From Patescibacteria group bacterium (GTDB taxonomy: Bacteria > Patescibacteriota > Minisyncoccia > GWC2-36-17 > WO2-46-25): a stretch of 36,257 bases of DNA. Both the position numbers and the translations under genes were made by a program. Each line of letters starts with the position of its first letter. Position 1 is the first letter of the stretch. Below the pieces are notes generated by a model. The model saw nothing but the letters and a program-made list of their open reading frames with translations. It had not been told where the DNA came from and did no database searches. Positions 4,275 through 25,140 of the stretch are shown one piece after another. The stretch covers positions 1-36,257 of the forward strand of contig JBBTXL010000045.1 of NCBI GenBank assembly GCA_038062295.1. Direction: 5' to 3'.

Positions 4275-4835
4275 ATGCACGACGATATTGTCAAAAATAT
4301 GGCGGTAAAGATGGAGCGTACGCTTGAGCATTTCAAGCAGGAAATTTCCGCGCTTCGTACCGGACGCGCAACTATCAGTCTGCTGGACGGCATCACGGCG
4401 GAGTACTACGGCCAGCCCACGCCGCTCAACCAGCTCGCAACGCTTGCCGTTGTACCGCCCAACATGATCGTTATTCAGCCGTGGGATAAAAACGCGATGG
4501 AGCCGATCCAAAAAGCCATCACCCAGTCCGCGCTTGGCATAGCGCCTATCGCGGACAAAGACAGTATTCGCCTGACCATGCCGGCGCTTTCCGAAGAGCG
4601 GCGCGCGATGCTGGTGAAAACGCTGAACCAACATGCGGAAGAGGCGCGCATTGCCGTTCGCCGCGAGCGCGAAGATGCGCTGCGCCACGCGCAGAAGCTG
4701 AAAGAGGACGGTGAGATGAAGGAAGACGACTTCTTCCGTACCAAGAACGACATCCAGAAAACGGTGGACGAATTCACGAACGAAAAGATCAAGGGCTTGC
4801 GCGATGCGAAAGAACAAGAGATACTGCGTTCATGA
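4275..4835 (+). CDS. frr: Ribosome recycling factor
   Basis: 186 aa. 'ISALRTGRATISLLDGITAEYYGQPTPLNQLATL..VQPWDK' is typical RRF. Confidence 0.95.
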   Translation: MHDDIVKNMAVKMERTLEHFKQEISALRTGRATISLLDGITAEYYGQPTPLNQLATLAVVPPNMIVIQPWDKNAMEPIQKAITQSALGIAPIADKDSIRLTMPALSEERRAMLVKTLNQHAEEARIAVRREREDALRHAQKLKEDGEMKEDDFFRTKNDIQKTVDEFTNEKIKGLRDAKEQEILRS

Positions 4836-5920
4836 TCATTGGAGCGGTTATTCTTTTTATCGCGATTTTGTGCGCCATCATCTTGGTGCATGAGTGGGGG
4901 CATTTTGTGACGGCGCGGCGAGCCGGTATTAAGGTAGAAGAGTTCGGTATGGGGTTCCCCCCGAAGGCCTATTCGTGGGTGAGAAACGGCGTCGTGTATT
5001 CGCTCAACTGGCTTCCCATCGGCGGGTTCGTGAAGATCTATGGTGAGGACGGGGACGCAAAAGACGACCCCATGAGTTTTGGCGCCAAGTCCATCCCAAC
5101 GCGTATCGTGGTCATTCTTGCGGGCGTGACGATGAACTTTATCCTTGCCGCGGTACTTTTGGCGTTCGGATTTTGGTACGGTATTCCGAGTGCCGTTTCA
5201 GACGATACGGCTAAATATCCCATGCGTAATGTGAGCGTGAGTATTACGCAGATCGCCCCCGGTTCCCCCGCGGAAAGTGCGGGGTTGAAGATCGGGGATG
5301 CGATACGGGCGTTTACCGCCGACGGTGCGCGCGTTGAAACAACGGAGGTTGTCGCGGTTCAGGAATATATCCAAGCACACAAAGGCACGGCAATCACCAT
5401 GATAGTGGCACGCGGTGAAGAGATGCTGGAAATTCCCGTAACGCCGCGCATGGAAACGCCGGCAGGAGAGGGTGCAGTCGGCGTCGCGCTCCAAAAGACA
5501 GCGATCGTCTCGTACCCGTGGTATCTCGCGCCGTTCAAGGGCATTGAAGCAATGGTGTCGCTCGCGTGGCTGTTTCTTTCCACATTCGCATCTATCGTGT
5601 GGCATCTCATTACGAACGGAAAACTTATTGCCGATATTGCAGGGCCGGTGGGCATCGGCGCACTGACATACCAGGTAACGCAGCTTGGGTTTTCCTACAT
5701 CATCCAGCTTGCCGCCATTTTGTCCATCAACATCGGCATTATCAACGCGTTGCCGTTTCCGGCGCTTGACGGCGGCCGCGCCGCGTTCTTGCTTGTGGAA
5801 GCGGTGAAAGGTTCCCCGTTGAGTAAGGTGTTCGAGTATCGGGCGAATATGATCGGTTTTGCGCTGTTGATGATTCTCATGGTGCTGATCACCGTGCGGG
5901 ATATTTTCAAGCTGTTTTGA
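4832..5920 (+). CDS. rseP: RIP (site-2) zinc metalloprotease RseP, M50 family
   Basis: 'HEWGHF' HExxH in the first TM segment, central PDZ-like segment, C-terminal 'NALPFPALDGG'. ATGA overlap with frr. Confidence 0.9.
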   Translation: MIIGAVILFIAILCAIILVHEWGHFVTARRAGIKVEEFGMGFPPKAYSWVRNGVVYSLNWLPIGGFVKIYGEDGDAKDDPMSFGAKSIPTRIVVILAGVTMNFILAAVLLAFGFWYGIPSAVSDDTAKYPMRNVSVSITQIAPGSPAESAGLKIGDAIRAFTADGARVETTEVVAVQEYIQAHKGTAITMIVARGEEMLEIPVTPRMETPAGEGAVGVALQKTAIVSYPWYLAPFKGIEAMVSLAWLFLSTFASIVWHLITNGKLIADIAGPVGIGALTYQVTQLGFSYIIQLAAILSINIGIINALPFPALDGGRAAFLLVEAVKGSPLSKVFEYRANMIGFALLMILMVLITVRDIFKLF

Positions 5921-5981: not shown

Positions 5982-6551
5982 ATGGATCAGTATAAACCAG
6001 ACATTTGGAGAGATGTTGTGCCAAAGATGCAAGAATGGACTGAACAAGAGAATAAAAACAGGCTGTTTTTGAGCAGATTTTTCAGAAAATGGAGCGTTGA
6101 GGAAATGGAGATTGTCAGCACATATTCGTACCTCGCATTCGTGATGAAGGAGCGTCTGAAAAAGATTGCGAATGACGCGCAATGCCATGAAAAAAGTATA
6201 CCGAGAGGAGTACACGAAGATGCCGTAGATTTTCTTTCGGCAGTCGTTCGGAATATCGATGGCAGTGACGCATCATGCCCATGTTGTCAGAAAGGTCCTC
6301 CTACCATGAAAAGGATATCGGTGATGATCCTTGCGGGACTGTTCCCGCAGATACGGAATGAGGAGGGCACCCTGCCTTTTTTTCAGATGTTTGTTACTTT
6401 GCTGGAGCGTCTGCGGCAACCCCATGCGCTTTCACCGGATGACCTGGTGACAGCACAGCAACTCGCGCGCTTTTTTGGCAGGTTGTCCTCGGTGGCCGAT
6501 GACTTCAATTATTCGGCACGCATGATAGAGTCTCACCGGTATCTCCCATGA
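5982..6551 (+). CDS. Hypothetical protein (189 aa)
   Basis: ATG preceded by the G-rich SD 'aaagggggtggggg'; followed by intrinsic terminator 6564-6595. No family recognised; contains 'CPCC'. Confidence 0.5.
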   Translation: MDQYKPDIWRDVVPKMQEWTEQENKNRLFLSRFFRKWSVEEMEIVSTYSYLAFVMKERLKKIANDAQCHEKSIPRGVHEDAVDFLSAVVRNIDGSDASCPCCQKGPPTMKRISVMILAGLFPQIRNEEGTLPFFQMFVTLLERLRQPHALSPDDLVTAQQLARFFGRLSSVADDFNYSARMIESHRYLP

Positions 6552-10328: not shown

Positions 10329-12248
10329 ATGGATTATATCGTCAAAAAATCGGAGAAGTGGTCCATCGACCCGGAGGAGATCCTGCTTGACCGCGCGTCC
10401 GCCGAAAAACTGGATGATTCAAAGTTTGAAGTTCCCATCCCGGCACACAACATAGTTGCGCTGTGCGTGCTCGCATGCACGGTGCTTACGGTATTTGTTG
10501 CGCGCGCCGGATACCTGGAAATAGAGCGCGGCGCGGCATACAGCGCGCTTGCCCAGAACAACAAAACGCGGCATTACCCGGTGCTTGCCACGCGGGGGAT
10601 CATGTACGACCGGAACGGAACGCCTCTGGTGTCCAACATTCCGAGTTTTGATGTTATCGTGGTGCCCGCAGACCTCCCGCGCGCCCGGGAAACGCGCCGC
10701 AGCGAGTCGGACGCGCTTGCCCGCATGCTTTCGGTGCAGCCCGAACTGTTATGGGAACAATTCACCCGTTTGGACCTCTCCGACGTGCAGCCGTTCGTTC
10801 TCAAAGAGAATGTTGACCGGGACGCCGCGCTTCGTTTGGAGACGGCGCTGGATGAGTTTCCCGGTATTGAACTTGAAAAGAACGCCGTCCGCAGCTACGC
10901 CGACGGGCCGTATTTTTCGCAGGTGGTCGGGTATGTCGGGCGGGCGTCCGAAAGCGATCTTGCGCGCAATGCCGCACTGTTTGGCGTTGATTCCGTCGGA
11001 AAGATCGGCGTGGAGGGTTCGTACGACGGCATGCTCCGGGGCGTGAACGGTATCATTGAACGTGAGATCGATGCGGTTGCGCGGCTCCGCAAGGAAGAGC
11101 AGGTGAGTCTGGAGGAAACGGGCGCAAGCGTTGTGTTGACCATTGACGGCGAGCTTCAAAAAAAACTGACCGATACGCTTGCGGCTGCCGTTGCGGCAAC
11201 GCCATCGTCCAAGGGTGGGGCTGCCGTCGCGCTTGATCCGCGCGACGGCGCGGTGCTCGCGCTCGTGAGTGTTCCTTCATACGACAATAATATTTTTTCG
11301 CACACTGCGTCACTGGAAGAATACCAATCGCTGGAGCAGGACTCGGCACATCCGCTGTTTGACCGTGCCATCGCGGGCCAGTATCCTCCGGGTTCTTCCA
11401 TCAAGCCGTTTCTCGCGGCTTCAGCGCTTACGGAAGGGATCATTACCGAACGAACAACCGTGGTGAGTACCGGCGCCATTACCATTCAGAGTCCGTATAG
11501 TCCGGAGGTGGTCTATACCTACCGCGACTGGAAAGCGGGCGGCCATGGCGTGGTGAATATTATCCGTGCCATTGCCGATTCGGTCAACACATTCTTTTAT
11601 TCCATTGGAGGCGGGTATGGCGACGTACAAGGACTTGGTGTTCAAAAGATCAAGGAATATCTTTCACTCTTTGGATTCGGGAGCGCAACCGGTATTGATA
11701 TTCCGGGCGAAGGTGAAGGAACGGTACCCGACCCCGCATGGAAAGAACAGGAGCTTGGCGAGCGCTGGTTGCTGGGGGATACGTATAACATATCCATCGG
11801 GCAGGGGAACCTTTTGGTGACGCCGCTCCAGCTTGCTGCGGCGTATGGTGCGCTTGCCAACGGTGGCGCGCTGCTCCAGCCGTTTGTGGTTGAAAGTGTT
11901 CTGGATAAAAATAAAAATGTTATTGCCAAAAACGAGCGGACCGTCATGCGGGAACAGGTTGTCCCGCAGGAGTATTTGAATATTGCCCGGCGCGGTATGC
12001 GTGAGACGGTGCTGTCAGGCACCGCGCAGTCCTTGCAAAGTTTGCCGGTTACGACCGCAGGCAAGACCGGCACGGCACAGGCACCGGGCGGTTTCACGCA
12101 TGCGTGGTTCAGCTCCTTTGCCCCGTACCAGGACCCCGAGATCGTACTTATCGTTCTCGTGGAAAACGGCGGCGAAGGTTCACAAGTCGCCGTCCCCGTT
12201 GCCAAAGAAGTCTACGAATGGTATTTTTCCCGTGACCGGAACCAGTAA
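10329..12248 (+). CDS. mrdA: Penicillin-binding protein 2 (elongasome transpeptidase)
   Basis: SxxK 'SSIKPF', SxN 'DSVN', KTG 'GKTGTA'. N-terminal TM anchor. Located after mreBCD. Confidence 0.9.
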   Translation: MDYIVKKSEKWSIDPEEILLDRASAEKLDDSKFEVPIPAHNIVALCVLACTVLTVFVARAGYLEIERGAAYSALAQNNKTRHYPVLATRGIMYDRNGTPLVSNIPSFDVIVVPADLPRARETRRSESDALARMLSVQPELLWEQFTRLDLSDVQPFVLKENVDRDAALRLETALDEFPGIELEKNAVRSYADGPYFSQVVGYVGRASESDLARNAALFGVDSVGKIGVEGSYDGMLRGVNGIIEREIDAVARLRKEEQVSLEETGASVVLTIDGELQKKLTDTLAAAVAATPSSKGGAAVALDPRDGAVLALVSVPSYDNNIFSHTASLEEYQSLEQDSAHPLFDRAIAGQYPPGSSIKPFLAASALTEGIITERTTVVSTGAITIQSPYSPEVVYTYRDWKAGGHGVVNIIRAIADSVNTFFYSIGGGYGDVQGLGVQKIKEYLSLFGFGSATGIDIPGEGEGTVPDPAWKEQELGERWLLGDTYNISIGQGNLLVTPLQLAAAYGALANGGALLQPFVVESVLDKNKNVIAKNERTVMREQVVPQEYLNIARRGMRETVLSGTAQSLQSLPVTTAGKTGTAQAPGGFTHAWFSSFAPYQDPEIVLIVLVENGGEGSQVAVPVAKEVYEWYFSRDRNQ

Positions 12249-13789: not shown

Positions 13790-14098
13790 ATGAGCGACAC
13801 CCGGCAGGAGCTTTACTCCTGCAGTGTCACCGGCTGCGGCACCACAGGCCCTGCGGACCGTATGTACTCTCTTGATAAGAGAGCTACAAGCGGAAAGCGG
13901 GTAGTGGTATGCCCCCCGTGCGGCAAGCTGGCCTGGAAAGAGGGAATTCGGACATACAAACTGTCTGACACCCTCCGGTACGAGGAACAGCAAGCCATGA
14001 AGCGCGGTTTCTTCCAGCCGTTCACGCGGTCTCTCGCGAAAGCGGAGGCCCGAAAGGACGGCAACGGCAAGAAACCCAAGCTTCACGCGGTTGGCTAG
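13790..14098 (+). CDS. Small zinc-ribbon protein (102 aa), uncharacterised
   Basis: Perfect SD AAAGGAGGTGA (13775-13785), 4 nt before the ATG. 'CSVTGC...(25)...CPPCG' four-Cys ribbon and a basic C-terminus. Confidence 0.7.
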   Translation: MSDTRQELYSCSVTGCGTTGPADRMYSLDKRATSGKRVVVCPPCGKLAWKEGIRTYKLSDTLRYEEQQAMKRGFFQPFTRSLAKAEARKDGNGKKPKLHAVG

Positions 14099-14201
14099 CG
14101 CAGACCGGACGCGTCAATCTCCGGCCAAGGCACCGGAGTTGCCCAAAAACCCTTGGGTGTCAAAGCATGGGTGCGATAGGGTTCTGCAAAATTTCGCAGG
14201 A

Positions 14202-14278
14202 CTCCCTTCCAGAGCTTGTCTTTACGACAGCGTCCCAGAGACGAAAAGCCACACACTTAGGCTGTCTCTGGAAGGGAG
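14202..14278 (+). repeat. SD-mimic stem-loop, copy A
   Basis: ctcccttccagag (14202-14214) is perfectly complementary over 13 bp to ctctggaagggag (14266-14278). Confidence 0.8.
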
Positions 14279-14326
14279 ATTGGCTCCCGCACAGTTCTTT
14301 CAAACCCGAGAGGAGGTGGTTACCGA

Positions 14327-14416
14327 ATGGTAAAACAGATCGTTGTCGCGGCTCCAAAGTGCCAGGCCGCCGGGTGGCATAAAAACTGCCCGTTCTGTCA
14401 GGCTCGCAAGAGCTGA
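14327..14416 (+). CDS. 29-aa Cys/His mini-protein MVKQIVVAAPKCQAAGWHKNCPFCQARKS (below the ORF-track cutoff)
   Basis: SD GAGGAGGTGG (14310-14319), 7 nt before ATG 14327. C12..H18..C21-x2-C24 knuckle. Stop TGA 14414-14416. Confidence 0.45.
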   Translation: MVKQIVVAAPKCQAAGWHKNCPFCQARKS

Positions 14417-14493
14417 CGCTGGCCATGAGGGGACGCACATGTGCGCCAAGGAGTTCCCCTCACTCAATAGAGCCAAGCAAAAAAATCGTTTGG

Positions 14494-14537
14494 CTCCCTT
14501 TCAGAGGCTTGAAACGATTCAAATTTCTGAAAGGGAG
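14494..14537 (+). repeat. SD-mimic stem-loop, copy B
   Basis: ctccctttcaga (14494-14505) is perfectly complementary over 12 bp to tctgaaagggag (14526-14537). Inner hairpin ttgaa-acga-ttcaa. Confidence 0.8.
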
Positions 14538-14633
14538 AAATCCCGAAGTTCTTTGAAACAACAGCAGCGCAGGGCTGCGAACGGGACGACGCCGTGTTTC
14601 GGTCGAGCCATCAACCTTCAAAGGAGGTGAATC

Positions 14634-15149
14634 ATGAGACAAGTCGGCTTCGTTACCTACAATTCCGTAGGGGACGGAGTGGCTGACGGCTGGCATAAAG
14701 CCGAAGATCGGCAAGCGTACGTGCTGCAAAACAGCAAAGGTGAACGCTTCGCAGTCGATGGAGTCAACGGAGGGGAGTTTGAAACCCTCTTTGAACTCTT
14801 CGAAGGCAAGTTTAACCGCGCTGATGGCAAGTACGCAGACGGCGTGAGTGACGAGATCAACGCCATCTGGAGGAAACTCCAGGCGGTTGTGAATGATCTT
14901 GATCACCTCGTGGTCTACGTCGGTTCGGCCGGGTCAGAGCGCGCCATTGAGCTCGCGAGGCAACTGCCTGCGTCCAAAGTCACCTTTGTCGGCTGTGATT
15001 GCGGGCTTCCCTTCAAGGAAGCTCTCATCCAGAAGGCTGGGTTGACCAAGGCGGGGCGGGTGCTGTGTGAGTGCGGTGGACGCCGGACCATGAAAGCGAT
15101 CTTTGATCGCTTCATGAAAACCGGTGCGCTTCTGCCTGCCAATGCCTAA
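14634..15149 (+). CDS. Hypothetical protein (171 aa) with paired C-x-C-G motifs
   Basis: Perfect SD AAAGGAGGTGA (14620-14630). The C-terminal half looks alpha/beta ('LVVYVGSAGSERAIELARQL') and carries 'GCDCG' and 'LCECGG'. Confidence 0.75.
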   Translation: MRQVGFVTYNSVGDGVADGWHKAEDRQAYVLQNSKGERFAVDGVNGGEFETLFELFEGKFNRADGKYADGVSDEINAIWRKLQAVVNDLDHLVVYVGSAGSERAIELARQLPASKVTFVGCDCGLPFKEALIQKAGLTKAGRVLCECGGRRTMKAIFDRFMKTGALLPANA

Positions 15150-15336
15150 GCTGCTCTTCCATCCTCATACTGCCATGTAAAATTGCTCCTGCGACATGGC
15201 GCAGGCGATGAGACTGTCGCGATGACAGGCTCCTCGTGAGCGGGGATCCGCGATAAAAAGAGAGAAAGATGGATTACTCTCCATAAATCCGGGCGAGACC
15301 GCAGGTGTTATTTGTGGGAAGGAAACAAAACCCTTC

Positions 15337-15370
15337 CCGCCTTTCTTGAGACGCGAAAGAGATTTGGCGG
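15337..15370 (+). repeat. SD-mimic stem-loop, copy C (degenerate)
   Basis: ccgcc/ggcgg outer stem with ctttc (15341-15345) / gaaag (15355-15359) inner stem. Followed by the agttcttttcaaac motif at 15385. Confidence 0.5.
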
Positions 15371-15704
15371 TTCAAGTTGAGGAAAGTTCTTTTCAAACAT
15401 TCAGATTCTGGAAGCGGCCCGCTCCAGAGACGGAACACCTTATCTGCTTAGGATGTTCTTAACCTTGGAAAGTATAGCCAAGGTTAGCCCGTGATGAGGG
15501 TGTCAAGCAGAAGGGTACAAGATGCCGGCATGCATCTTGTGGCGAGGAGCCAAGGGGAGCTGAACACAGGTGCACCTGTGTCCCTAACGAGATAGGGCAA
15601 CTTCTTCCTCTCGCGGCCGCACCGTAGGGAGGTTTATAGAGGTCGGATCCCCTCTAAGAAGGCCTGTCTCATTGCTAAATGGGACTACGAGAAAAAACTC
15701 GTAG

Positions 15705-15750
15705 TCCCGCTTTCAGAGATCTTGAGGAAACTCGAGATTTGCGAAGGGGA
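15705..15750 (+). repeat. SD-mimic stem-loop, copy D
   Basis: tcccgctttc...gcgaagggga imperfect outer stem. Inner hairpin atcttgag-gaaa-ctcgagat (15719-15738). Shares 'ctttcagag..cttg' with copies A, B and F. Confidence 0.6.
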
Positions 15751-15878
15751 ATTAGCGTAGGGCTGATTCCAAAGTTCTTTTAAATCAAACCGTAAAGGAG
15801 GTGGGGCACACTCCACCAAAAAAGGCGCACGCGGCTACGACCGCACTCGCCACAAAGAACATATGAGGAGGCACAACG

Positions 15879-15911
15879 ATGCATAAACTTACCTCCTCTC
15901 CCTTTCAGTAA
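15879..15911 (+). CDS. Micro-ORF MHKLTSSPFQ (10 aa), putative leader peptide
   Basis: SD GAGGAGG (15865-15871), 7 nt before the ATG. Its last codons form the left arm of stem-loop E. Confidence 0.3.
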   Translation: MHKLTSSPFQ

Positions 15912-15947
15912 CCATTTGAGACAAAGAGAGAGTGGTTACCGAAAGGG
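15900..15947 (+). repeat. SD-mimic stem-loop, copy E
   Basis: ccctttcagtaacca (15900-15914) versus tggttaccgaaaggg (15933-15947): 14 of 15 paired. Confidence 0.7.
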
Positions 15948-15992
15948 AAAAAAGACAGTACATTTAAAAACCAAATAACAGGAGGATGAACC

Positions 15993-16412
15993 GTGGTAAA
16001 AAAGATCGTGGTTGTGGAAGATAACCCCGTCGAGCTACAAAAGGCGTGCGATTTGGTTGCGGCGCGCGGCATGATGCCGCTTCCGTGCGCAACCCACAAG
16101 GATGCGATTGAAAGCATTCTCAGCTATCAACCGAAAGGATTGGTTGGTATTCTTACCGATTTGCACTTCCCGATCGCGGAAGGCAAAAACCCGGAAGGCG
16201 CGTGCGGTTTGCATGTGGTGCACCTTGCGCTCACGATGGGTATGCCGGTCGCTATTTGTTCCGATATCGACCATCACTACGCCACATGGGCAAACGATCT
16301 TGTGCGCGATGTTGAAAAGGCAACCGGCAGAAAAGTTGCCGGATTTATTCAAGACAGCAAAAATTGGGAGAAAGCGCTTGCGCTACTCCTCGACGAAAAG
16401 GAGGAACGGTGA
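15993..16412 (+). CDS. Stand-alone CheY-like receiver (REC) domain protein (139 aa)
   Basis: GTG start 6 nt after AGGAGGA. 'KIVVVEDNP' (acidic pair), 'ILTDLHFP' (phospho-acceptor Asp), 'VAICSD' (conserved Ser/Thr). Confidence 0.8.
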   Translation: MVKKIVVVEDNPVELQKACDLVAARGMMPLPCATHKDAIESILSYQPKGLVGILTDLHFPIAEGKNPEGACGLHVVHLALTMGMPVAICSDIDHHYATWANDLVRDVEKATGRKVAGFIQDSKNWEKALALLLDEKEER

Positions 16413-16768
16413 CGACGGAAAAGAAAAACTACAACGTTTTGTTTGTATCCGAAATGGCGCCGGTCAATGCCGCCATGGACAGGATACTCAACCAACTTTT
16501 CTCTATTGGTGAAGTATGTGGTTTGGAAGACGCCGAAGATAAGATCTTTGCCGGCAACTACACGCACATCATTGTGATGGGAGAGTTCAGGTCGAACACC
16601 CCCAGCAAGGGTAGAGATTTTTATCAGCTTTTGAAACTACGGCTTCCGATCTGGAGAAAGGACGCCAAGGTTCTCAAAAGTGGCATGGATAACATCCAAG
16701 ACGACCCGGACTATGTCTGCATCCTGAATTTTCTTCCCGGGTTCATTCAGTGGGTCGAGTCGCACTAA
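16409..16768 (+). CDS. Receiver-like (degenerate) domain protein (about 119 aa)
   Basis: GTGA overlap with the REC gene stop; AAGGAGGA upstream. A beta-alpha pattern ('NVLFVSE', 'HIIVMGEF') without the acidic pocket. The start could instead be the ATG at 'SEMAP'. Confidence 0.55.
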   Translation: MTTEKKNYNVLFVSEMAPVNAAMDRILNQLFSIGEVCGLEDAEDKIFAGNYTHIIVMGEFRSNTPSKGRDFYQLLKLRLPIWRKDAKVLKSGMDNIQDDPDYVCILNFLPGFIQWVESH

Positions 16769-16769
16769 T

Positions 16770-16813
16770 AACAGTTCGACAAGCTCACCGAAACAGTTCG
16801 ATACACTCACTGT
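16770..16813 (+). repeat. Tandem 22-bp direct repeat (2 units)
   Basis: aacagttcgacaagctcaccga / aacagttcgatacactcactgt: 17 of 22 identical. The first 10 nt and the 'ctcac' block are conserved. Confidence 0.75.
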
Positions 16814-16830
16814 AAAAAGGAGGTGATGGG

Positions 16831-16869
16831 GTGAAGTTCTTCTATCCCGTTGGATTTGTTCAGGAGTAG
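16831..16869 (+). CDS. Micro-ORF MKFFYPVGFVQE (12 aa)
   Basis: GTG start 7 nt after the GGAGG core of perfect SD AAAGGAGGTGA (16816-16826). Peptide-level paralog of the micro-ORF at 23647-23679. Confidence 0.4.
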   Translation: MKFFYPVGFVQE

Positions 16870-17288
16870 GGAGCCTCTGTCATGAAGGGGAACACGGGGT
16901 CCGGCGGTGCTCAACCGTCGGGAAATCGGGACCAGAGAGATTGACCAGGACGGAGTCCTGGTGTGATCACTGGAAAAACCCGTTGTTTCTTTCCAGATTC
17001 CGTCATGCTGCCTGGGGGGTGTCCCTATATGCGGGACGAAGCCCGTACCAGCTTTTGCGCTCTCCCTTGAGAAAGGAGAGGTCGGCAACGGTGGCCCGTG
17101 TGTTCCAAACTTCGGTTTGGACGACGGCGGCAGTATGGCGCGAGGTGCAGACGTATCGGAGGAACCTCGTGAGAAGAATCTGGCGCGGCCGGTGAAGTGC
17201 AACGCACTGCGGAGCTTGGGGGCGGAACAACCCGCGGTGAGCCGGTAAGGAAACTACCCTTCATGCATGCTCGGTTTTATCAACCACT
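16870..17288 (+). ncRNA. Candidate ~0.4-kb structured RNA / leader
   Basis: 9-bp long-range helix catgaaggg (16881-16889) / cccttcatg (17257-17265). Local stems at 16944-16962, 17060-17080 and 17105-17120 (the last with a UUCG loop). ORFs listed here look like composition artefacts. Confidence 0.35.
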
Positions 17289-17309
17289 ATGAACGAAAGG
17301 AGGCACACA

Positions 17310-17606
17310 ATGTCGTGCGAAGAAATGGAGCCGGAATGGCAGGAAATTGAGCAAGAAGTTGAAAAGGTGGTTGAAGCGCTTCCGGAGCTGCCACCCAAAG
17401 AAGTTATCATGGAGGAAATTCATATGGAGACCCACAAGCTCGTTGACCTCCAGAAAGTCATTTTCGGGAAACCGAATCTGAAGCGCGCAGAAACTGCGGC
17501 GCTTATGAAAAGTGCGGCGAGAAACATCCTTGCCAATATCAAGGCGGGCGCCGCCAAACATCTTCCTGTGCATGTGACAGGCAACTCCCGCCAACGGGCG
17601 GGATAA
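17310..17606 (+). CDS. Hypothetical acidic protein (98 aa)
   Basis: ATG 17310 lies 6 nt after AAAGGAGG. The listed 17289 start has no SD. Confidence 0.65.
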   Translation: MSCEEMEPEWQEIEQEVEKVVEALPELPPKEVIMEEIHMETHKLVDLQKVIFGKPNLKRAETAALMKSAARNILANIKAGAAKHLPVHVTGNSRQRAG

Positions 17607-17630
17607 AGGGGTAAGGAGTAACATATCTTT

Positions 17631-17699
17631 ATCCCTCTTTCAGAGCTTGCCAGAACTATATTTTTGTGGTATACTGTTCTGACAAGTTGCGAAAGGGAT
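17631..17699 (+). repeat. SD-mimic stem-loop, copy F (carries a promoter in its loop)
   Basis: atccctctttc...gcgaaagggat outer stem. Inner stem cttgccagaac (17646-17656) / gttctgacaag (17676-17686) with one mismatch. Confidence 0.6.
17647..17675 (+). promoter_or_regulatory. Sigma70-type promoter with extended -10
   Basis: TTGCCA, 17-nt spacer, TGg-TATACT. Shares the 13-mer tggtatactgttc with the promoter at 12272-12285. Confidence 0.6.
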
Positions 17700-17728
17700 C
17701 TTTGAAAAACAAATAAAGCGGAGGGGAG

Positions 17729-17962
17729 ATGAAAACACAGGAAGAGATACAAAGCGACCTCGTTGCGATACTGGAAAGCCATGGCGACGTGAAAGGTTAT
17801 ATTGCAAGTCTTATCGACCCGTTGCCATACACGACGCCCGAGGAGAAAGCAAGTAAAAATAGGAAAGCCGCGGCAGCGATTATGGCGTACGGTTCGTTTG
17901 AACGCGGTCTCTTTAATGTTGATATGCTTGCTGAAATATTACATAGAACTATCAACCCCTAA
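17729..17962 (+). CDS. Hypothetical protein (77 aa)
   Basis: ATG preceded by GCGGAGGGGAG. Stop TAA overlaps the SD of the next gene. Confidence 0.6.
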   Translation: MKTQEEIQSDLVAILESHGDVKGYIASLIDPLPYTTPEEKASKNRKAAAAIMAYGSFERGLFNVDMLAEILHRTINP

Positions 17963-17975
17963 AGGAGGTGAGAAC

Positions 17976-19055
17976 ATGGAGATGAGTTTGTCGTTGCGGC
18001 AAAGCCCGATGCTGGAATTGCGGCAGGCGCTGGAGAGTTCGCTTGAGCAGTCACTTATGGTACGGCATGAACTCCAGATGGCCATGGTGTTGTATCAGAA
18101 GCGGGAAGATGTATGCACCCGTCTTTACAAAAACGCTCTCAAAAAGGGTATGGTGAAACAGTACGCTCGGCACGACATGCAGTTTGAATTCGCGCTGGTG
18201 CGGAAGAAAGACGTCCCGGAGTGGATCTGGAAAGACTGCGGCCACGCGTTTTCCCATTGTCTCATGAAAGGATGGGACTGCTTCTTTTTCGGAAGCAAGT
18301 ATGCTATGGCGCGTGGGAGCTGGTTACTCTTTGTCATCCATGATTTTCACCGCGAACCGATGCCGGACAGCGCTGTCGGGTATGCAGCGGTACATGAGCG
18401 TGGAGAGATGGTTACGTTGGGAGATCACAACCTGGCATCCAAGCTCGAATTTTCGATCGCTGCGAAGGAGAGCAAGCTTAAGTGGTACATCGAATGGATC
18501 AAACAGACATGTCCGGAGAAATTTGCCGACATATTCAGCTACCAGACCCACTTCGTGCTGCCCGAGGGCGAGGAACTGCGTCAGACGCTCGAGGTATTCC
18601 AAGCATCTAAAGAAGCTCGGAAAGTAAAACAGCTGATCGAAGAATTTGAGTGGCCGTTGACGCTGTTGAAACTCCTCAAACAGTACGATGACGCAAACCG
18701 GCAGGCGCTTGGAATCATTCTGGATATGTTCTTGATGGCCGGCGATGTGGCGATAAAGGCCAATGTTTCCGTCATTCAGACGGTTGAACATATCAAGGCG
18801 GTTTTCCAGCGCGGGTTTTCCGAAATGACTTCCCAAGATCTCAAAAGGTACTTGAGCATTGTTCGGTTGGAAGGACGATGGAAAGATCAGCGCAATGAGC
18901 TGGGGAATAAGTTTTCCGAGATGTTGACCAGGAGAGAGAAACTCTTGGGCATTGACCGCTATCTTCGCGAACTTGATGCCGCGAGGGTAACAAATTCTCT
19001 TCCCACAGACGGCATTCTCTCTCCGGACTTTCGGGAAGTCCTCCGATATATATGA
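17976..19055 (+). CDS. Hypothetical protein (359 aa)
   Basis: ATG 17976 lies 5 nt after AAAGGAGGTGA (17961-17971); the listed 17802 start overlaps the previous gene. Contains 'CGHAFSHCLMKGWDC'. No family recognised. Confidence 0.75.
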   Translation: MEMSLSLRQSPMLELRQALESSLEQSLMVRHELQMAMVLYQKREDVCTRLYKNALKKGMVKQYARHDMQFEFALVRKKDVPEWIWKDCGHAFSHCLMKGWDCFFFGSKYAMARGSWLLFVIHDFHREPMPDSAVGYAAVHERGEMVTLGDHNLASKLEFSIAAKESKLKWYIEWIKQTCPEKFADIFSYQTHFVLPEGEELRQTLEVFQASKEARKVKQLIEEFEWPLTLLKLLKQYDDANRQALGIILDMFLMAGDVAIKANVSVIQTVEHIKAVFQRGFSEMTSQDLKRYLSIVRLEGRWKDQRNELGNKFSEMLTRREKLLGIDRYLRELDAARVTNSLPTDGILSPDFREVLRYI

Positions 19056-19138: not shown

Positions 19139-20881
19139 ATGTATTCAACCCGAAACCTGATATCTGATACCTGGTTTTATTTGAGAGCTTATAAAAAGAG
19201 GTTTTTGCTGGCGACACTCCTGCGAGTGGTCGCCGATCTGTCGTGGCTCTATCCGCCCTATGCGTTTGCGGTGATCGTGAACTTTTTTGCCGATTACACC
19301 GCCGGAGAATCCTTGATGCCCATATACACTGCGTTTGTACTTACCATCGTTGCGGTTACGGTCCGGTACTGGGGATTACAGCTTGTAAAGATGATGGCGT
19401 ACCAGATCTCCGAACGGGTTGCCCTGGACGCAGAACTCCGGGCAATGAGGCACTTGGTACTCCTTGACATGTCTTGGCATGAAAAAGAGAACGCCGGGAA
19501 CAAATTCAAGCGCATCGAGCGAGGAGCCGAGAGCTTAGATGTGGTTCTCCGGATCTGGATAGACAATATCATTGAGATCGTCGTCAACCTCGTGGGGGTA
19601 GTATTCATTATTCTCCACTTTGACCTTGGGATGGGCATCGCAGTTTCTCTATTTCTGGTCACGTTCTATGTTTTAGCCCGCTTCTATCGCAAGAAGGCAG
19701 TAGCTGCGGCGGGTGTGGTGAATATAAAAACAGAGCATCGGAGCGGGATACTTTTTGAATCCATAAACAACATTCGGAGCGTTAAGGTAATGTCCATGGC
19801 GCCCAAGATTTTGGAAACGCTCTCGGCAAATGCGGCGGATCTGTTCAGCGCGATCAGAAAACGAATTTACTGGTTCCAAATCGGGGGTACCATCAGAAAC
19901 TTTTACGCAAATGCTTTTCAGATCGGCGCGATGATCTATATTGTCTACGGGGTGGTTCATGGAAAGTATGAGATCGGCTTTCTGGTGCTCTTTGTCGGAT
20001 ACTTCGGGCATGTTTGGCAGTCGATGCGGGAACTCGCGGATATAACCGCACGTTTTGCCGTTGCCAGAATCGCCGTTTCTCGCATGCAGGACATCCTCTA
20101 TACTCCTGTCACGATCGACCGCGAAGACGGGAAGGTTGCGTTTCCCGTCGACTGGAAAACAATATCGGTAAACAATGTGTCGTTCTCGTACCAAAGCAAA
20201 CCCGTCCTGCGTAACGTATCATTTACCGTGCATCGGGGAGAAAAGGTCGGCGTTGTTGGCCTGTCGGGAGCGGGAAAGTCAACTCTGTTTAAGCTTTTGC
20301 TCAAAGAGCACGAGTCTTATAGCGGCGAGATCTATTTTGACGATGTTCCCTTGCGGGACATCAGCAAACGGGATTATTTTAACCACATGGCGGTGGTACT
20401 CCAGGATACCGAGCTCTTCAACGCGTCGCTGCGCGACAACATTACTATCACGAACCAAAAAGAGGAAAATAATAAAAAACTGCTTCGGGATTCGATCGAG
20501 ATAGCTCATGTGAAGGACTTCATGGCGAAGTTGTCGGAAGGAGCGGAATCCGTTATTGGGGAAAAGGGGATAAAGCTGTCGGGGGGAGAGAAACAGCGTG
20601 TGGGGCTCGCGCGGGCGATATTCAAAAAGCCGCAAATCCTCCTTCTGGATGAAGCGACCTCACATCTGGATATAGAGTCCGAAGAAAAAATTCAGGATTC
20701 ACTGCACCGGTTTTTCAAGAATGTGACCGCCGTCGTCATCGCTCACCGGCTCACCACCATCAAAGAAATGGACACAATCATCGTTATTGAGGATGGGAGC
20801 ATCATGGAGTCCGGAAGTTTTTCCGATCTGCAAAAGAGAAAAGGGAGATTTGCCGAGCTGTGGGAGAAGCAGAAACTCTAG
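19139..20881 (+). CDS. ABC exporter, fused permease-ATPase (MsbA / type I exporter-like)
   Basis: Six-TM N-terminal half. Walker A 'GLSGAGKST', signature 'LSGGEKQRV', Walker B 'ILLLDEATSHLD'. No peptidase domain. Confidence 0.93.
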   Translation: MYSTRNLISDTWFYLRAYKKRFLLATLLRVVADLSWLYPPYAFAVIVNFFADYTAGESLMPIYTAFVLTIVAVTVRYWGLQLVKMMAYQISERVALDAELRAMRHLVLLDMSWHEKENAGNKFKRIERGAESLDVVLRIWIDNIIEIVVNLVGVVFIILHFDLGMGIAVSLFLVTFYVLARFYRKKAVAAAGVVNIKTEHRSGILFESINNIRSVKVMSMAPKILETLSANAADLFSAIRKRIYWFQIGGTIRNFYANAFQIGAMIYIVYGVVHGKYEIGFLVLFVGYFGHVWQSMRELADITARFAVARIAVSRMQDILYTPVTIDREDGKVAFPVDWKTISVNNVSFSYQSKPVLRNVSFTVHRGEKVGVVGLSGAGKSTLFKLLLKEHESYSGEIYFDDVPLRDISKRDYFNHMAVVLQDTELFNASLRDNITITNQKEENNKKLLRDSIEIAHVKDFMAKLSEGAESVIGEKGIKLSGGEKQRVGLARAIFKKPQILLLDEATSHLDIESEEKIQDSLHRFFKNVTAVVIAHRLTTIKEMDTIIVIEDGSIMESGSFSDLQKRKGRFAELWEKQKL

Positions 20882-22703: not shown

Positions 22704-23431
22704 AAGGTGTGAAACAGCGATTTCAAACTCTCCGCCAAGCTTTTGGATACCACGGTAAATCCGAAATCTTCCTCTTTAGGGGAAATGACGGCCACGGTGT
22801 TGTCCAAAATAAGAATGGTGCTGGTGATTTTCATGCCAGCAGGCAGGAAGCGAAGTTCACGCAGCCGTTCTTTTTGCTGTGTGATATATTTATGTTCGAT
22901 TTCCTCTTCTCGCACTCGCAATGACTTGGAGAGAATTTTTTGTGCTACCCGCCTTCGGCTGAAGGAAAAATCGGGTCCCAAGACTTCCTTTATTTTTTGC
23001 GACGAACCAATGGAGTATAAGACTTTTTCTTTACTCTCAAGCAGTTTGTTATAGATGGTTCGGATACCCTCCTCTCCTTCATACAGATTGAGCGGAGCTT
23101 TTGTTCGGGAGATGTTCGCGTGCTGATATTTGTCCAGCTCCGGTTTGAGTTTTTCAAATGTTACTATCCTATCTTCCAGCATGCTCTTGATGTGTATCGG
23201 GTTTTCAGCAGTATACCGCTTTATCTTATTGGATATGTAAGAAGAAGCAAGACCGGATTTTACCAAGTTTTCCAAAATGTTGTAGGCGGTGGGCCGCTTC
23301 ACGCCCGCCTTTTTTGCAATGAGCGATACCGGAGCATCGGCAAGTCCAAGGAGCGCAAAATAGACGTTTTGGCTTGCCTCATCAAGACCAAGGGACGAGA
23401 AAAACTTTTCTAATTCATGGCTTGTTGTCAT
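22676..23431 (-). CDS. TrmB-family winged-helix transcriptional regulator (251 aa), paralog 2
   Basis: 'LGLDEASQNVYFALLGLADAPVSLIAKKAGVKRPTAYNILENLVKSGL'. Same length and architecture as 12288-13043. Confidence 0.8.
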   Translation of the reverse strand: MTTSHELEKFFSSLGLDEASQNVYFALLGLADAPVSLIAKKAGVKRPTAYNILENLVKSGLASSYISNKIKRYTAENPIHIKSMLEDRIVTFEKLKPELDKYQHANISRTKAPLNLYEGEEGIRTIYNKLLESKEKVLYSIGSSQKIKEVLGPDFSFSRRRVAQKILSKSLRVREEEIEHKYITQQKERLRELRFLPAGMKITSTILILDNTVAVISPKEEDFGFTVVSKSLAESLKSLFHTLWNVSEPAK

Positions 23432-23448
23432 AATGCATCAACAGAACG

Positions 23449-23457
23449 ATTATACCA
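23449..23457 (-). promoter_or_regulatory. Extended -10 promoter element (TGgTATAAT) for TrmB paralog 2
   Basis: Minus strand reads atggtataatcgttc, about 17 nt upstream of the ATG at 23431. The -35 is poor. Confidence 0.55.
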
Positions 23458-23646
23458 TTTCGTTCGTTTTTTCGCTATATTCCTACACTTTTTGCCGTAC
23501 CAATTATCTTGTTTATCGAGAGCACCTACTTTTCCAGCATTGACGCATGGAAAACGTATAATAGCGTCAGCACATTGAAACCAACCCCCAACCGCCCGCA
23601 GGCGAACCTGCTGCTGGATGAAAAACATCCACAAAGAGGAGGTACT

Positions 23647-23679
23647 GTGAAAAACAGCTACCCCACCGGGTTCTTATAA
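23647..23679 (+). CDS. Micro-ORF MKNSYPTGFL (10 aa)
   Basis: GTG start after AGAGGAGGT (23635-23643). Shares M-K-x-x-Y-P-x-G-F with the micro-ORF at 16831, using different codons. Confidence 0.4.
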   Translation: MKNSYPTGFL

Positions 23680-23774
23680 CAGTAAGACCCGGAGGCGAGG
23701 CGAGGACCAACGTCCACACCGCGACCTCCTCACTTTCCTTGAGCTCCGCATGCATGCGGGCCTCAAGAGAAGTT

Positions 23775-24344
23775 ATGAATATGCCAACCTTGGGAGTAAA
23801 CATCGCGATAATCCAAAACGGCAAGGTGTTGCTCACGAAACGTGAAGATTTTGAAGTGTGGTGCTTGCCGGGCGGCGGAGTGGATGCGGGCGAGTCGGTT
23901 GCAGAAGCGGTGATTCGCGAAACAAAGGAGGAAACGGGGCTTGATGTCCGGCTGACAAGAATGGTAGGAGTATACTCGCGGCCGCACTGGCTGGAGAATG
24001 GCGACCATACGGTGTTGTTTACAGCAGAAGTAGTCGGCGGGAACCTAAAACCGGAGGCGCGCGAGGTGGTGGACATCGGTTTCTTTGAGCCGCACCAACT
24101 GCCCGAGCCACTTATCTGGTGGTACCGCGAGCAGATCCACGATGCGGTGGGCGGAATAGTCGGAGTGACGCGCACGCAACACATCCCGCAGCCGTTCGGC
24201 AAAGGGGTGAGCATGCGGGAACTGTACCGGATACGCGATAAAACAAAAATACCCCGCCAGCAGTTTTTCCTTCGCCATTTCCAAACACCGCTTATCGTTC
24301 ATCCAGAGCGTATCCTGAAACGGATGGCTCTGGATGGGAGATAA
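23775..24344 (+). CDS. Nudix hydrolase
   Basis: Nudix box 'GGGVDAGESVAEAVIRETKEETGL'. ATG 23775 chosen because it follows hairpin 23738-23767; ATG 23781 is also possible. Confidence 0.85.
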   Translation: MNMPTLGVNIAIIQNGKVLLTKREDFEVWCLPGGGVDAGESVAEAVIRETKEETGLDVRLTRMVGVYSRPHWLENGDHTVLFTAEVVGGNLKPEAREVVDIGFFEPHQLPEPLIWWYREQIHDAVGGIVGVTRTQHIPQPFGKGVSMRELYRIRDKTKIPRQQFFLRHFQTPLIVHPERILKRMALDGR

Positions 24345-24411: not shown

Positions 24412-25140
24412 GTGAGTTATGAATGGAGCCGAGAGATCATTGTAGGCATTCGGAATGAAACGCTGTCCATTCACCAAGCGGCACAGCGTACCGGTCTTCC
24501 GGAAGAATACTTCCGCGAGGTCGATACCATTTTCTGGGAGGGCGATATGTTCCAGGCGCTTCCCGATGATTTTGAGCGCGTGACGACTAATCTCGCGCGC
24601 AAGCTGAAAAAGGACACCGATGACCGCTTCCGCGATAAATCCTTGCAAACATTCATCGATGCGTCCATCACGGCACACGGGAAACACTCCCGCACACCGT
24701 CCAAAGCGGTGCGCAAGTGGGACGGGAAAACGCCATACAGCGTTCACCCCATCTGGTGCGCAATGATGCTGCTCCACGAAACCACACTGCACGAGCATGT
24801 GCGTATCACGGGGTTCCAGACGCTGCTTCTCCATGACGTGTTGGAAGACACGACGGTGATGTTGCCAACGCTCGTATCGGAGGAAGTGCGAAGGTGGGTG
24901 CATGATATGACATTTGCCAGTTCCGATGAGGAGATGGAAACAATCTGGGACAAACCTCCTGTCATCCAGCTCCTGAAGCTCTATGACAAGGTTTCCAACC
25001 TCATGGACGGCGCATGGATGAGTAAGGAAAAGCGAGCGCGGTATACGGAATACACCATGAAACTCTGCGCGGAAGTTGAGCAGACATATGGCGCGCTCAA
25101 CATCGTAAAACTTGCACACGCGATTGCGGGCTCTCGCTAA
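24412..25140 (+). CDS. HD-domain protein of the RelA/SpoT hydrolase type (small alarmone hydrolase-like)
   Basis: GTG start after AAGGAGGG. 'YSVHPIWCAMML', 'LLLHDVLEDT' and 'KLYDKVSNL' match the (p)ppGpp-hydrolase HD signature. There is an N-terminal extension of about 90 aa. Confidence 0.75.
   Translation: MSYEWSREIIVGIRNETLSIHQAAQRTGLPEEYFREVDTIFWEGDMFQALPDDFERVTTNLARKLKKDTDDRFRDKSLQTFIDASITAHGKHSRTPSKAVRKWDGKTPYSVHPIWCAMMLLHETTLHEHVRITGFQTLLLHDVLEDTTVMLPTLVSEEVRRWVHDMTFASSDEEMETIWDKPPVIQLLKLYDKVSNLMDGAWMSKEKRARYTEYTMKLCAEVEQTYGALNIVKLAHAIAGSR

Follow-up and report, generated by a model that had tools for sequence, protein, structure and literature searches.

The closest described counterparts of the elements reported here are the Erm and Cat leaders (ErmCL, ErmAL1, ErmDL, Cat86L and CmlAL), which are SD-led ORFs of ~8–19 codons with critical residues at about positions 5–9 (e.g., IFVI at 6–9 in ErmCL and IAVV at 5–8 in ErmAL) and a variable sequence afterwards, whose 3′ part is embedded in a leader hairpin and which behave as modules placed before different genes. 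Further points of reference are the ROSE and fourU thermometers, anti-SD leader hairpins and the Bacillus STAB-SD, in which a perfect or extended SD pairs with an anti-SD, either internal or distal, and which are located in long untranslated, structured RNA; the trpL, hisL and pheL attenuator leaders, which are short ORFs upstream of operons; and minimal precursor genes such as those of microcin C7 (mccA, 7 codons) and the biarylitides (bytA, 5 codons), which are SD-led ORFs with a hairpin directly 3′. The micro-ORFs that we describe from a 36,257-nucleotide stretch of Patescibacteria DNA (hereafter the window) share the features just named with each of these systems, and we predict that they belong to a known kind of element, namely short leader ORFs that are translated and linked to SD-sequestering RNA structure. 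Unlike the Erm/Cat leaders, to which they have no sequence similarity, their own SD is predicted to be sequestered and two of their three copies precede long non-coding RNA. Unlike the SD-sequestering switches, the SD here serves a conserved ORF of 10–12 codons whose codons would themselves supply the anti-SD, and the element corresponds to no Rfam family. In contrast to the trpL-type attenuators, they lack tandem regulatory codons, an intrinsic terminator and a biosynthetic operon; no codon is repeated in the conserved part, with the Phe-Phe of copy 1 falling at the variable positions 3–4. The likeness to mccA and bytA extends to an exporter in the operon of one copy, but the peptides end in Leu or Glu instead of being heptapeptides ending in Asn, there is no MccB/ThiF-like enzyme or P450 among the neighbors, and no partner enzyme is common to the copies.

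The window lies in contig CAYICE010000001.1, which belongs to a groundwater metagenome-assembled genome (assembly GCA_964361915.1); samples from Hainich well H51 contain identical contigs, and its nearest protein relatives are from Patescibacteria/CPR (Candidate Phyla Radiation) bacteria. All contigs in eight DNA runs are identical and thereby offer no strain variation, synonymous or non-synonymous. Micro-ORF 1 (copy 1; 16831–16869, plus strand) has a GTG start and encodes MKFFYPVGFVQE followed by a stop codon (GTG AAG TTC TTC TAT CCC GTT GGA TTT GTT CAG GAG TAG); it starts 6 nt 3′ of a GGAGGT (16819–16824) contained in the extended SD AAAGGAGGTGA (16816–16826, plus strand), an 11-mer that is also present before three real genes of the operon around it. 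Micro-ORF 2 (copy 2; 23647–23679, plus strand) likewise has a GTG start and encodes MKNSYPTGFL followed by a stop codon (GTG AAA AAC AGC TAC CCC ACC GGG TTC TTA TAA), 3 nt 3′ of the GGAGGT (23638–23643) of the SD GAGGAGGT (23636–23643, plus strand). The two have M1, K2, Y5, P6, G8 and F9 in common, and their third bases differ in the K, Y, G and F codons, with the Pro codon being CCC in both. A reading of the sequence thus finds exactly what the initial annotation had described, namely two GTG micro-ORFs after GGAGGT with a common M-K-x-x-Y-P-x-G-F.

One explanation of this pair is a chance resemblance between unrelated short ORFs. A degenerate pattern written after the fact matches only these two sites in the window (0.00 expected), but such a test is circular, and we therefore made a fairer in-register comparison of the 35 distinct SD-led ORFs of 6–30 codons in the window. 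Copies 1 and 2 emerge as the best pair, with five identities in positions 2–10 against three for the next best; because 13 of 300 first-order Markov simulations of the window (4.3%) reach a pair at least as good (p ~0.04), the window on its own is only suggestive. Scans of larger collections give totals that are also compatible with chance: a species-genome scan with the pattern GGAGG-N3-10-[AGT]TG-AAR-N6-TAY-CCN-N3-GGN-TTY (one genome per species, 185,579 species) yielded 26 loci, which is close to chance level and most of which lie within long frames, and there was nothing convincing in a metagenome scan with a GGAGGT-led pattern (nine loci, all chance-like or in or beside other frames) or in a viral scan (four matches, all chance). 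We rejected one metagenomic candidate, LKSSYPFGF-stop (L028), which lies at a contig end and antisense to a gene.

Against chance stands a third copy among the 26 loci, in the groundwater Patescibacteria genome DP16D_bin.9 (locus L012; contig SCQK01000008.1, 5408–5440), which reads ATG AAG CGC ACC TAT CCG AGT GGG TTT CTT TAG (MKRTYPSGFL-stop) after the SD AAAGGAGGTG. It agrees with the window copies in several features that the pattern does not force, i.e., a Patescibacteria lineage, the extended SD, a length of ten codons, Leu10 (CTT vs. TTA in copy 2, with TAG vs. TAA as the stop), S/T swaps at positions 4 and 7, and a location in a gene-free, intergenic stretch; it also displays a terminal hairpin, which the pattern does not require either. 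As a rough estimate, with background frequencies taken from the other 25 matches, a match of this quality among the 26 has a probability of ~1e-3, and we regard chance as a very improbable source of the resemblance. Because a third member with such unforced matching features exists in another genome, the family is, as judged from these sequences, real but rare, small and sporadic. The paralogy proposed by the initial annotation for the two ORFs is thereby borne out, and the pattern search that it had suggested for further copies recovers MKRTYPSGFL. The family is best explained as a set of lineage-restricted, SD-led ORFs of 10–12 codons, with the sequence M-K-x-x-Y-P-x-G-F-[L/V], in groundwater Patescibacteria.

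The distribution of these ORFs is patchy. The 20.8-kb L012 contig has one copy, and the other Patescibacteria loci, ~100 kb in all, have none. The flanks of the ORF in L012 and in the window share no nucleotide similarity, which makes the 33-nt ORF together with its SD an island of conservation; the GC-rich elements that follow the ORF in the two genomes (16870–17288 in the window vs. 5441–6240 in L012) show no homology by blastn or tblastx. The micro-ORF is missing from three sets of loci, which encode homologues, respectively, of the TrmB-like regulator beside copy 2 (L036–L039, L046 and L047; 39–61% identity), of the 359-aa protein downstream of copy 1 (L052–L055; 48–54%) and of the TrmB regulator of L012 (L056 and L057; 60–66%). 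Its absence from these three homologue sets indicates that the element is modular and sporadic, and not the dedicated leader of a gene family. Hence, the conservation in orthologous leaders that the initial annotation had expected of a leader peptide largely fails, with homologues of 39–66% identity occurring in loci devoid of the micro-ORF. We found no paper on leader peptides or uORFs in Patescibacteria/Parcubacteria, and CruR (PMC9426467) proved to be unrelated to these micro-ORFs.

A possible relative, which we offer as a lead only, comes from uncultured rabbit-gut Clostridia (L003), where MKWRYPEGFT-stop is encoded on the minus strand at 505–473, with a tandem paralogue, MKIRPTSGFT-stop, at 674–642 of the same strand. 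The surrounding minus-strand segment (~880–400) has the form of a stand-alone unit with a promoter-like site, a terminator and three SD-led micro-ORFs (MIRGPTIFCFTKN, MKIRPTSGFT and MKWRYPEGFT, each followed by a stop codon), of which the latter two have GGATTCACTTAG in common, forming hairpin arms. This unit belongs to no Rfam family and has no match in the plasmid collection, and the element of copy 1 likewise has no match in that collection. More generally, no part of the window reaches the gathering score of an Rfam family, and with E up to 10 the regions around both sites, L012 and L003 gave nothing beyond noise.

SD usage in the window is split. Every gene of the operon at 13790–19055 has a strong SD, often AAAGGAGGTGA, whereas most other genes, including the PBP2-type gene at 10329–12248, have no SD within 30 nt upstream. 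The SDs of the micro-ORFs, extended and near-perfect in each copy, are of the same kind and spacing as those of the real genes of the surrounding operon. Given that each real gene of that operon begins with such an SD and most other genes in the window have none, translation of the micro-ORFs is plausible. Part of the Parcubacteria lacks the 16S anti-SD motif (PMC9297842); at least eight genes here have a consistent SD-to-start spacing, which is an argument for SD use by this organism.

Copy 1 is situated within this fully SD-led operon, where 62 nt separate it from the stop codon of the gene before it. Between it and the next SD-led gene (ATG 17310, ~440 nt from the micro-ORF) lies a GC-rich (59%), non-coding stretch of 419 nt (16870–17288, plus strand), for which we found no Rfam match. 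We considered and rejected a protein-coding role for this 0.4-kb element: the frames at 16807–17202 (minus strand) and 16941–17195 (plus strand) give R/S/P-rich, non-protein-like translations without Pfam matches. Further 3′ are SD-led genes for proteins of 98, 77 and 359 aa, followed by an MsbA/HlyB-like ABC exporter (19139–20881), which is 2.3 kb from copy 1. The 359-aa protein (17976–19055) has no sequence match in Pfam, NCBIfam or PDB; it has more than 50 homologues (35–55% identity) across CPR lineages (e.g., Andersenbacteria and Portnoybacteria) in varied gene contexts and, by this homology, is a widespread, uncharacterized CPR protein family. Copy 2 is divergent from a TrmB-like regulator and lies ~95 nt before a Nudix gene (likely start ATG 23775); the gene after the latter (24412–25140) encodes an HD protein with a weak likeness to SpoT. 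The match of this protein to the HD part of RelA/SpoT is weak (NCBIfam E = 8.5e-6; PHROG metal-dependent phosphohydrolase E = 7e-4), and there is no synthetase near it. These surroundings agree with the downstream contexts given by the initial annotation (the 0.4-kb element and the gene at 17310 for copy 1, the Nudix/HD operon for copy 2), and both copies do stand at the start of a long structured leader, which spans ~95 nt with z = -5 in copy 2 and 419 nt of 59% GC without a credible ORF in copy 1.

In L012, no same-strand protein gene occurs within ~1.1 kb downstream of the micro-ORF, which is instead followed by ~0.8 kb of non-coding sequence of 62% GC with a repeated motif and then by a convergent tRNA. 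Long GC-rich non-coding RNA follows two of the three copies (59% and 62% GC vs. 52% and 47% locally). The repeated motif of L012 is GC-rich and structured (CGCCaACCAAACCyCGGCrrTTCACCAAGTAGCCGGGGAAGTCCTCGCG...; 5514–5562 and 6037–6085, continuing to ~5640 and ~6160), shows a U.G to C-G change in a stem and matches no Rfam family. Elsewhere on this contig, two perfect 12/12 TTGACA-17-TATAAT promoters stand back to back (4321–4349, minus strand; 4445–4473, plus strand), and the plus-strand promoter appears to drive a ~210-nt unit that, on our reading of the sequence, ends in a GGGCCTCT...AGAGGCCC-TTTT hairpin (~4650–4690). This unit, beside the TrmB-like regulator, is a candidate small RNA or riboswitch. 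The adjacency of both copy 2 and the L012 copy to TrmB regulators is probably incidental, since these genomes encode many TrmB paralogues and a terminator-like hairpin lies between the L012 regulator and the micro-ORF. A phage or defense-island interpretation of the surroundings was also tried and dropped, with PHROGs and PADLOC being uninformative.

These contexts bear on the possibility that the micro-ORFs are minimal genes for a free, trans-acting small peptide, i.e., a signal, an inhibitor or the precursor of a modified peptide. Copy 1 looks like a further gene in an operon that encodes many small SD-led proteins, including a 29-aa Cys/His peptide, and the MsbA/HlyB-type exporter follows; moreover, neither the L012 ORF nor the possible Clostridia ORFs are closely followed by a same-strand gene, and the Clostridia unit has its own promoter-like site and terminator. 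However, no modifying enzyme, receptor or exporter is common to the three contexts, the neighbors have no relevant matches in Pfam, NCBIfam, PADLOC or PHROGs, and the family of the 359-aa neighbor is widespread in CPR without the micro-ORF. A sequestered SD would also be odd for a product gene, and unprocessed active peptides of ten residues are rare. Hence, we consider a free peptide product improbable.

The predicted RNA structure ties the start region of the micro-ORFs to their own codons. In copy 2, the SD GAGGAGGT is predicted to pair either locally with the Tyr-Pro codons (23659–23664; GG-A-GGUA with UACCCC) or, in the full leader (predicted z = -5.06), with a distal perfect anti-SD, ACCTCCTC (also written ACCUCCUC; 23724–23731, plus strand), 80 nt downstream, which would close a multibranch fold over the whole of micro-ORF 2. 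In L012, AGGUGCGC is predicted to pair with GCGCACCU (codons 3–5), leaving the AUG in the loop, and a similar SD/start-to-codon pairing is predicted for copy 1 and L003b. We accordingly predict that the Tyr-Pro codons UAYCC function as an internal anti-SD for the micro-ORF's own SD/start region, which would pair with codons 3–7. The third positions of the Tyr and Gly codons, which face each other in a mini-helix AYCC/GGRU, are U-A, C-G, U.G and U-A in four sequences, and pairing in all four has a chance probability of ~0.03; with only three secure copies, this covariation is anecdotal.

A second predicted element sits at the end of the ORF. Hairpin Hb of copy 2 (CCGGGTTCTTA / TAAGACCCGG; 23666–23692, plus strand; -17.7 kcal/mol, z = -3.3) has codons 7–10 as its 5′ arm and the stop codon TAA in its loop; its arms can also be written CCGGGUUCUUA / UAAGACCCGG, and its 3′ arm bears an SD-like GGAGG. 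The equivalent hairpin of L012 (GGGTTTCTT / AAGAAACCC, with the 5′ arm also written GGGUUUCUU; z = -4.2) similarly has the stop codon in its loop. In both, the Gly-Phe-Leu codons make up the 5′ arm and 9–10 bp are predicted, and the arm sequences differ between the two with both arms changing together. Copy 1 has no such terminal hairpin (z = -1.1). Further downstream in the leader of copy 2, the long hairpin H4 (23732–23773, plus strand) ends 2 nt before the likely Nudix start and forms whether or not 23632–23692 is held single-stranded. We found no terminator-like site on the plus strand at 16400–17800 or 23300–24000, and neither a terminator nor an antiterminator.

In all three copies, the start codon is overlapped by the end of another frame as (A/G)TGA. 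In copy 1, the overlap is within ATGGGGTGA (also written AUGGGGUGA); in copy 2, an upstream frame (23618–23650, plus strand, ATG to TGA; MKNIHKEEVL-stop) crosses the SD of the micro-ORF and stops on its start (GTGA); and in L012, it is an SD-led frame of 19 codons (5352–5411). The start of the MKNIHKEEVL frame, ATGAAAAACA, is nearly identical to that of micro-ORF 2, GTGAAAAACA, and each of these starts lies in a small GAAAA(A)-looped hairpin. An unrelated SD-led ORF of ten codons in the operon of copy 1 (15879–15911, plus strand; MHKLTSSPFQ-stop) also has an SD that is predicted to pair with codons 5–7 and last codons that form the 5′ arm of a strong predicted hairpin (z = -5.8). Thus, in the predicted folds, the layout of an SD, ten codons and a hairpin recurs in this operon with a different peptide.

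The initial annotation had taken the synonymous codon differences between copies 1 and 2 as the signature of selection on the peptide rather than on the RNA. This is not established: the variable third positions lie in predicted loops (K and P) or covary in predicted helices, with the Phe/Leu codons pairing with compensating downstream arms. Furthermore, third-position differences were allowed by construction, because the pair was picked by amino-acid identity and the scan required it. The opposite reading is of an untranslated RNA motif, in which the SD-like segment, UAYCC and GGRUU would be pairing or protein-binding elements (e.g., a 5′ stabilizer of the STAB-SD type) and the ORF would be incidental. 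It would account for the predicted placement of nearly every codon of micro-ORF 2 in a helix and for the covariation of the Tyr and Gly third positions; it also fits with the SD-like/anti-SD-like hairpins that are common in these spacers in the L012 sequence, with the lack of an SD on most genes here and with the lack of an anti-SD in some Parcubacteria (PMC9297842). However, identical SDs precede real operon genes, and an RNA-only motif has no need of an in-frame start, a start-to-UAY distance fixed at 12 nt despite SD-to-start spacings of 3 to 6 nt, or an in-frame stop after exactly ten codons, as is the case in copy 2 and L012 (TAA vs. TAG). Across 159 kb of Patescibacteria DNA, a frame-agnostic RNA pattern, GGAGG-N8-30-AYCC-N4-GGRU, matches the three copies that have the ORF and nothing else (0.34 expected); in that DNA, it never occurs without an ORF or out of frame. 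We therefore think it quite improbable that the ORF is incidental. The in-frame start, the fixed 12 nt, the stop at ten codons, the retention of Leu10 and the lack of ORF-less instances together suggest that translation of the micro-ORF frame matters, from which it does not follow that the peptide is the functional product.

If the frame is translated, the peptide could act as a nascent-chain arrest sensor, in which Y-P-x-G-F at positions 5–9 would stall the ribosome at about codon 9–10 upon exposure to a small molecule or translation stress, and the stalled ribosome would remodel or stabilize the downstream RNA, as with the ErmCL, ErmAL and Cat leaders. The constant block at 5–9, set between the variable positions 3–4 and a variable tail (L-stop vs. 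VQE-stop), has the layout of drug-dependent arrest leaders of 8–10 residues; Leu10 is kept via TTA in copy 2 and CTT in L012, S/T swaps separate these two at positions 4 and 7, and the 3′ end of the ORF falls in a predicted hairpin arm. Such a sensor would thus fit the conservation at positions 5–9, but it accounts for none of the other features of the family, and the codon-level signature that had been attributed to the peptide is equally well explained by RNA pairing. The motif matches no known arrest motif, and the micro-ORF is not conserved before homologous genes. There is no resistance or biosynthetic gene downstream: none of the Erm/Cat-type determinants (rRNA methylase, acetyltransferase, ABC-F or efflux) appears as the regulated gene, with the downstream genes being the Nudix and weakly SpoT-like HD genes in copy 2 and those for the 98-, 77- and 359-aa unknown proteins in copy 1. 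On the RNA side, we found no terminator, no alternative pairing that unmasks a downstream start and, in contrast to the Erm/Cat leaders, no hairpin swap in the fold of copy 2 that would free a downstream ribosome-binding site. Accordingly, a sensor of this kind appears unlikely, if still worth entertaining. The proposal of the initial annotation that these are leader peptides acting as sensors thus stands in part: there is a real family, with SDs like those of operon genes and a conserved 5–9 block before a variable tail, as in ErmCL. The regulatory part of the proposal is weakened, there being no terminator or antiterminator, no effect of a held ribosome on the hairpin at the Nudix start in the predicted fold and no same-strand protein gene within ~1.1 kb downstream in L012.

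We tentatively favor, at a level short of probable, the reading that the micro-ORFs are translated, cis-acting leader ORFs inside a self-sequestering RNA switch. On this proposal, initiation would normally be blocked by pairing of the SD, and would be opened either co-transcriptionally or by a ribosome arriving via the overlapping upstream frame. A ribosome translating the ten codons would then melt the terminal hairpin and free its 3′ arm, which in copy 2 includes the SD-like GGAGG, and this may alter how the structured RNA downstream folds, loads ribosomes or is protected from nucleases. The RNA in question would be the leader of the Nudix/HD-hydrolase genes, the GC-rich element of 0.4 kb or, in L012, the GC-rich region of 0.8 kb. 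The constant Y-P-x-G-F at positions 5–9 may tune the dwell time of the ribosome, and its placement would be, at least in part, a by-product of pairing segments being read in a fixed frame. Several observations count against the switch: the terminal hairpin is missing from copy 1, the loci with homologues of the neighboring genes do not have the element, and some Parcubacteria lack the 16S anti-SD (PMC9297842). In addition, in a constrained fold of 23575–23800 with 23632–23692 kept open, as with a ribosome on micro-ORF 2, the hairpin at 23732–23773 remains intact, and this unchanged hairpin at the Nudix start means that the fold points to no concrete output switch.

A more far-reaching form of the sensor proposal would have MK-x-x-YP-x-GF be a previously unknown ribosome-arrest or ribosome-sensing decapeptide of CPR/Patescibacteria, with a possibly related form (MKWRYPEGFT / MKIRPTSGFT) in gut Clostridia, that ties the state of their reduced ribosomes, or some small-molecule cue, to what becomes of long structured RNAs and a Nudix/(p)ppGpp-hydrolase-like operon; we see this as a speculative and rather improbable extension. 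At present, what stands is a small, real family that is not yet a discovery. Gene regulation in the CPR/Patescibacteria is almost unexplored, and ORFs of ten codons are invisible to gene callers. If our reading is correct, a conserved SD-led ORF of ten codons in an SD-sequestering fold would rank among the earliest candidates for a translational control device in these bacteria, and it would offer a handle on why one operon is fully SD-led when most genes have no SD. If the peptide were the sensor, it would be a new arrest motif, and one that comes from organisms whose ribosomes are reduced.
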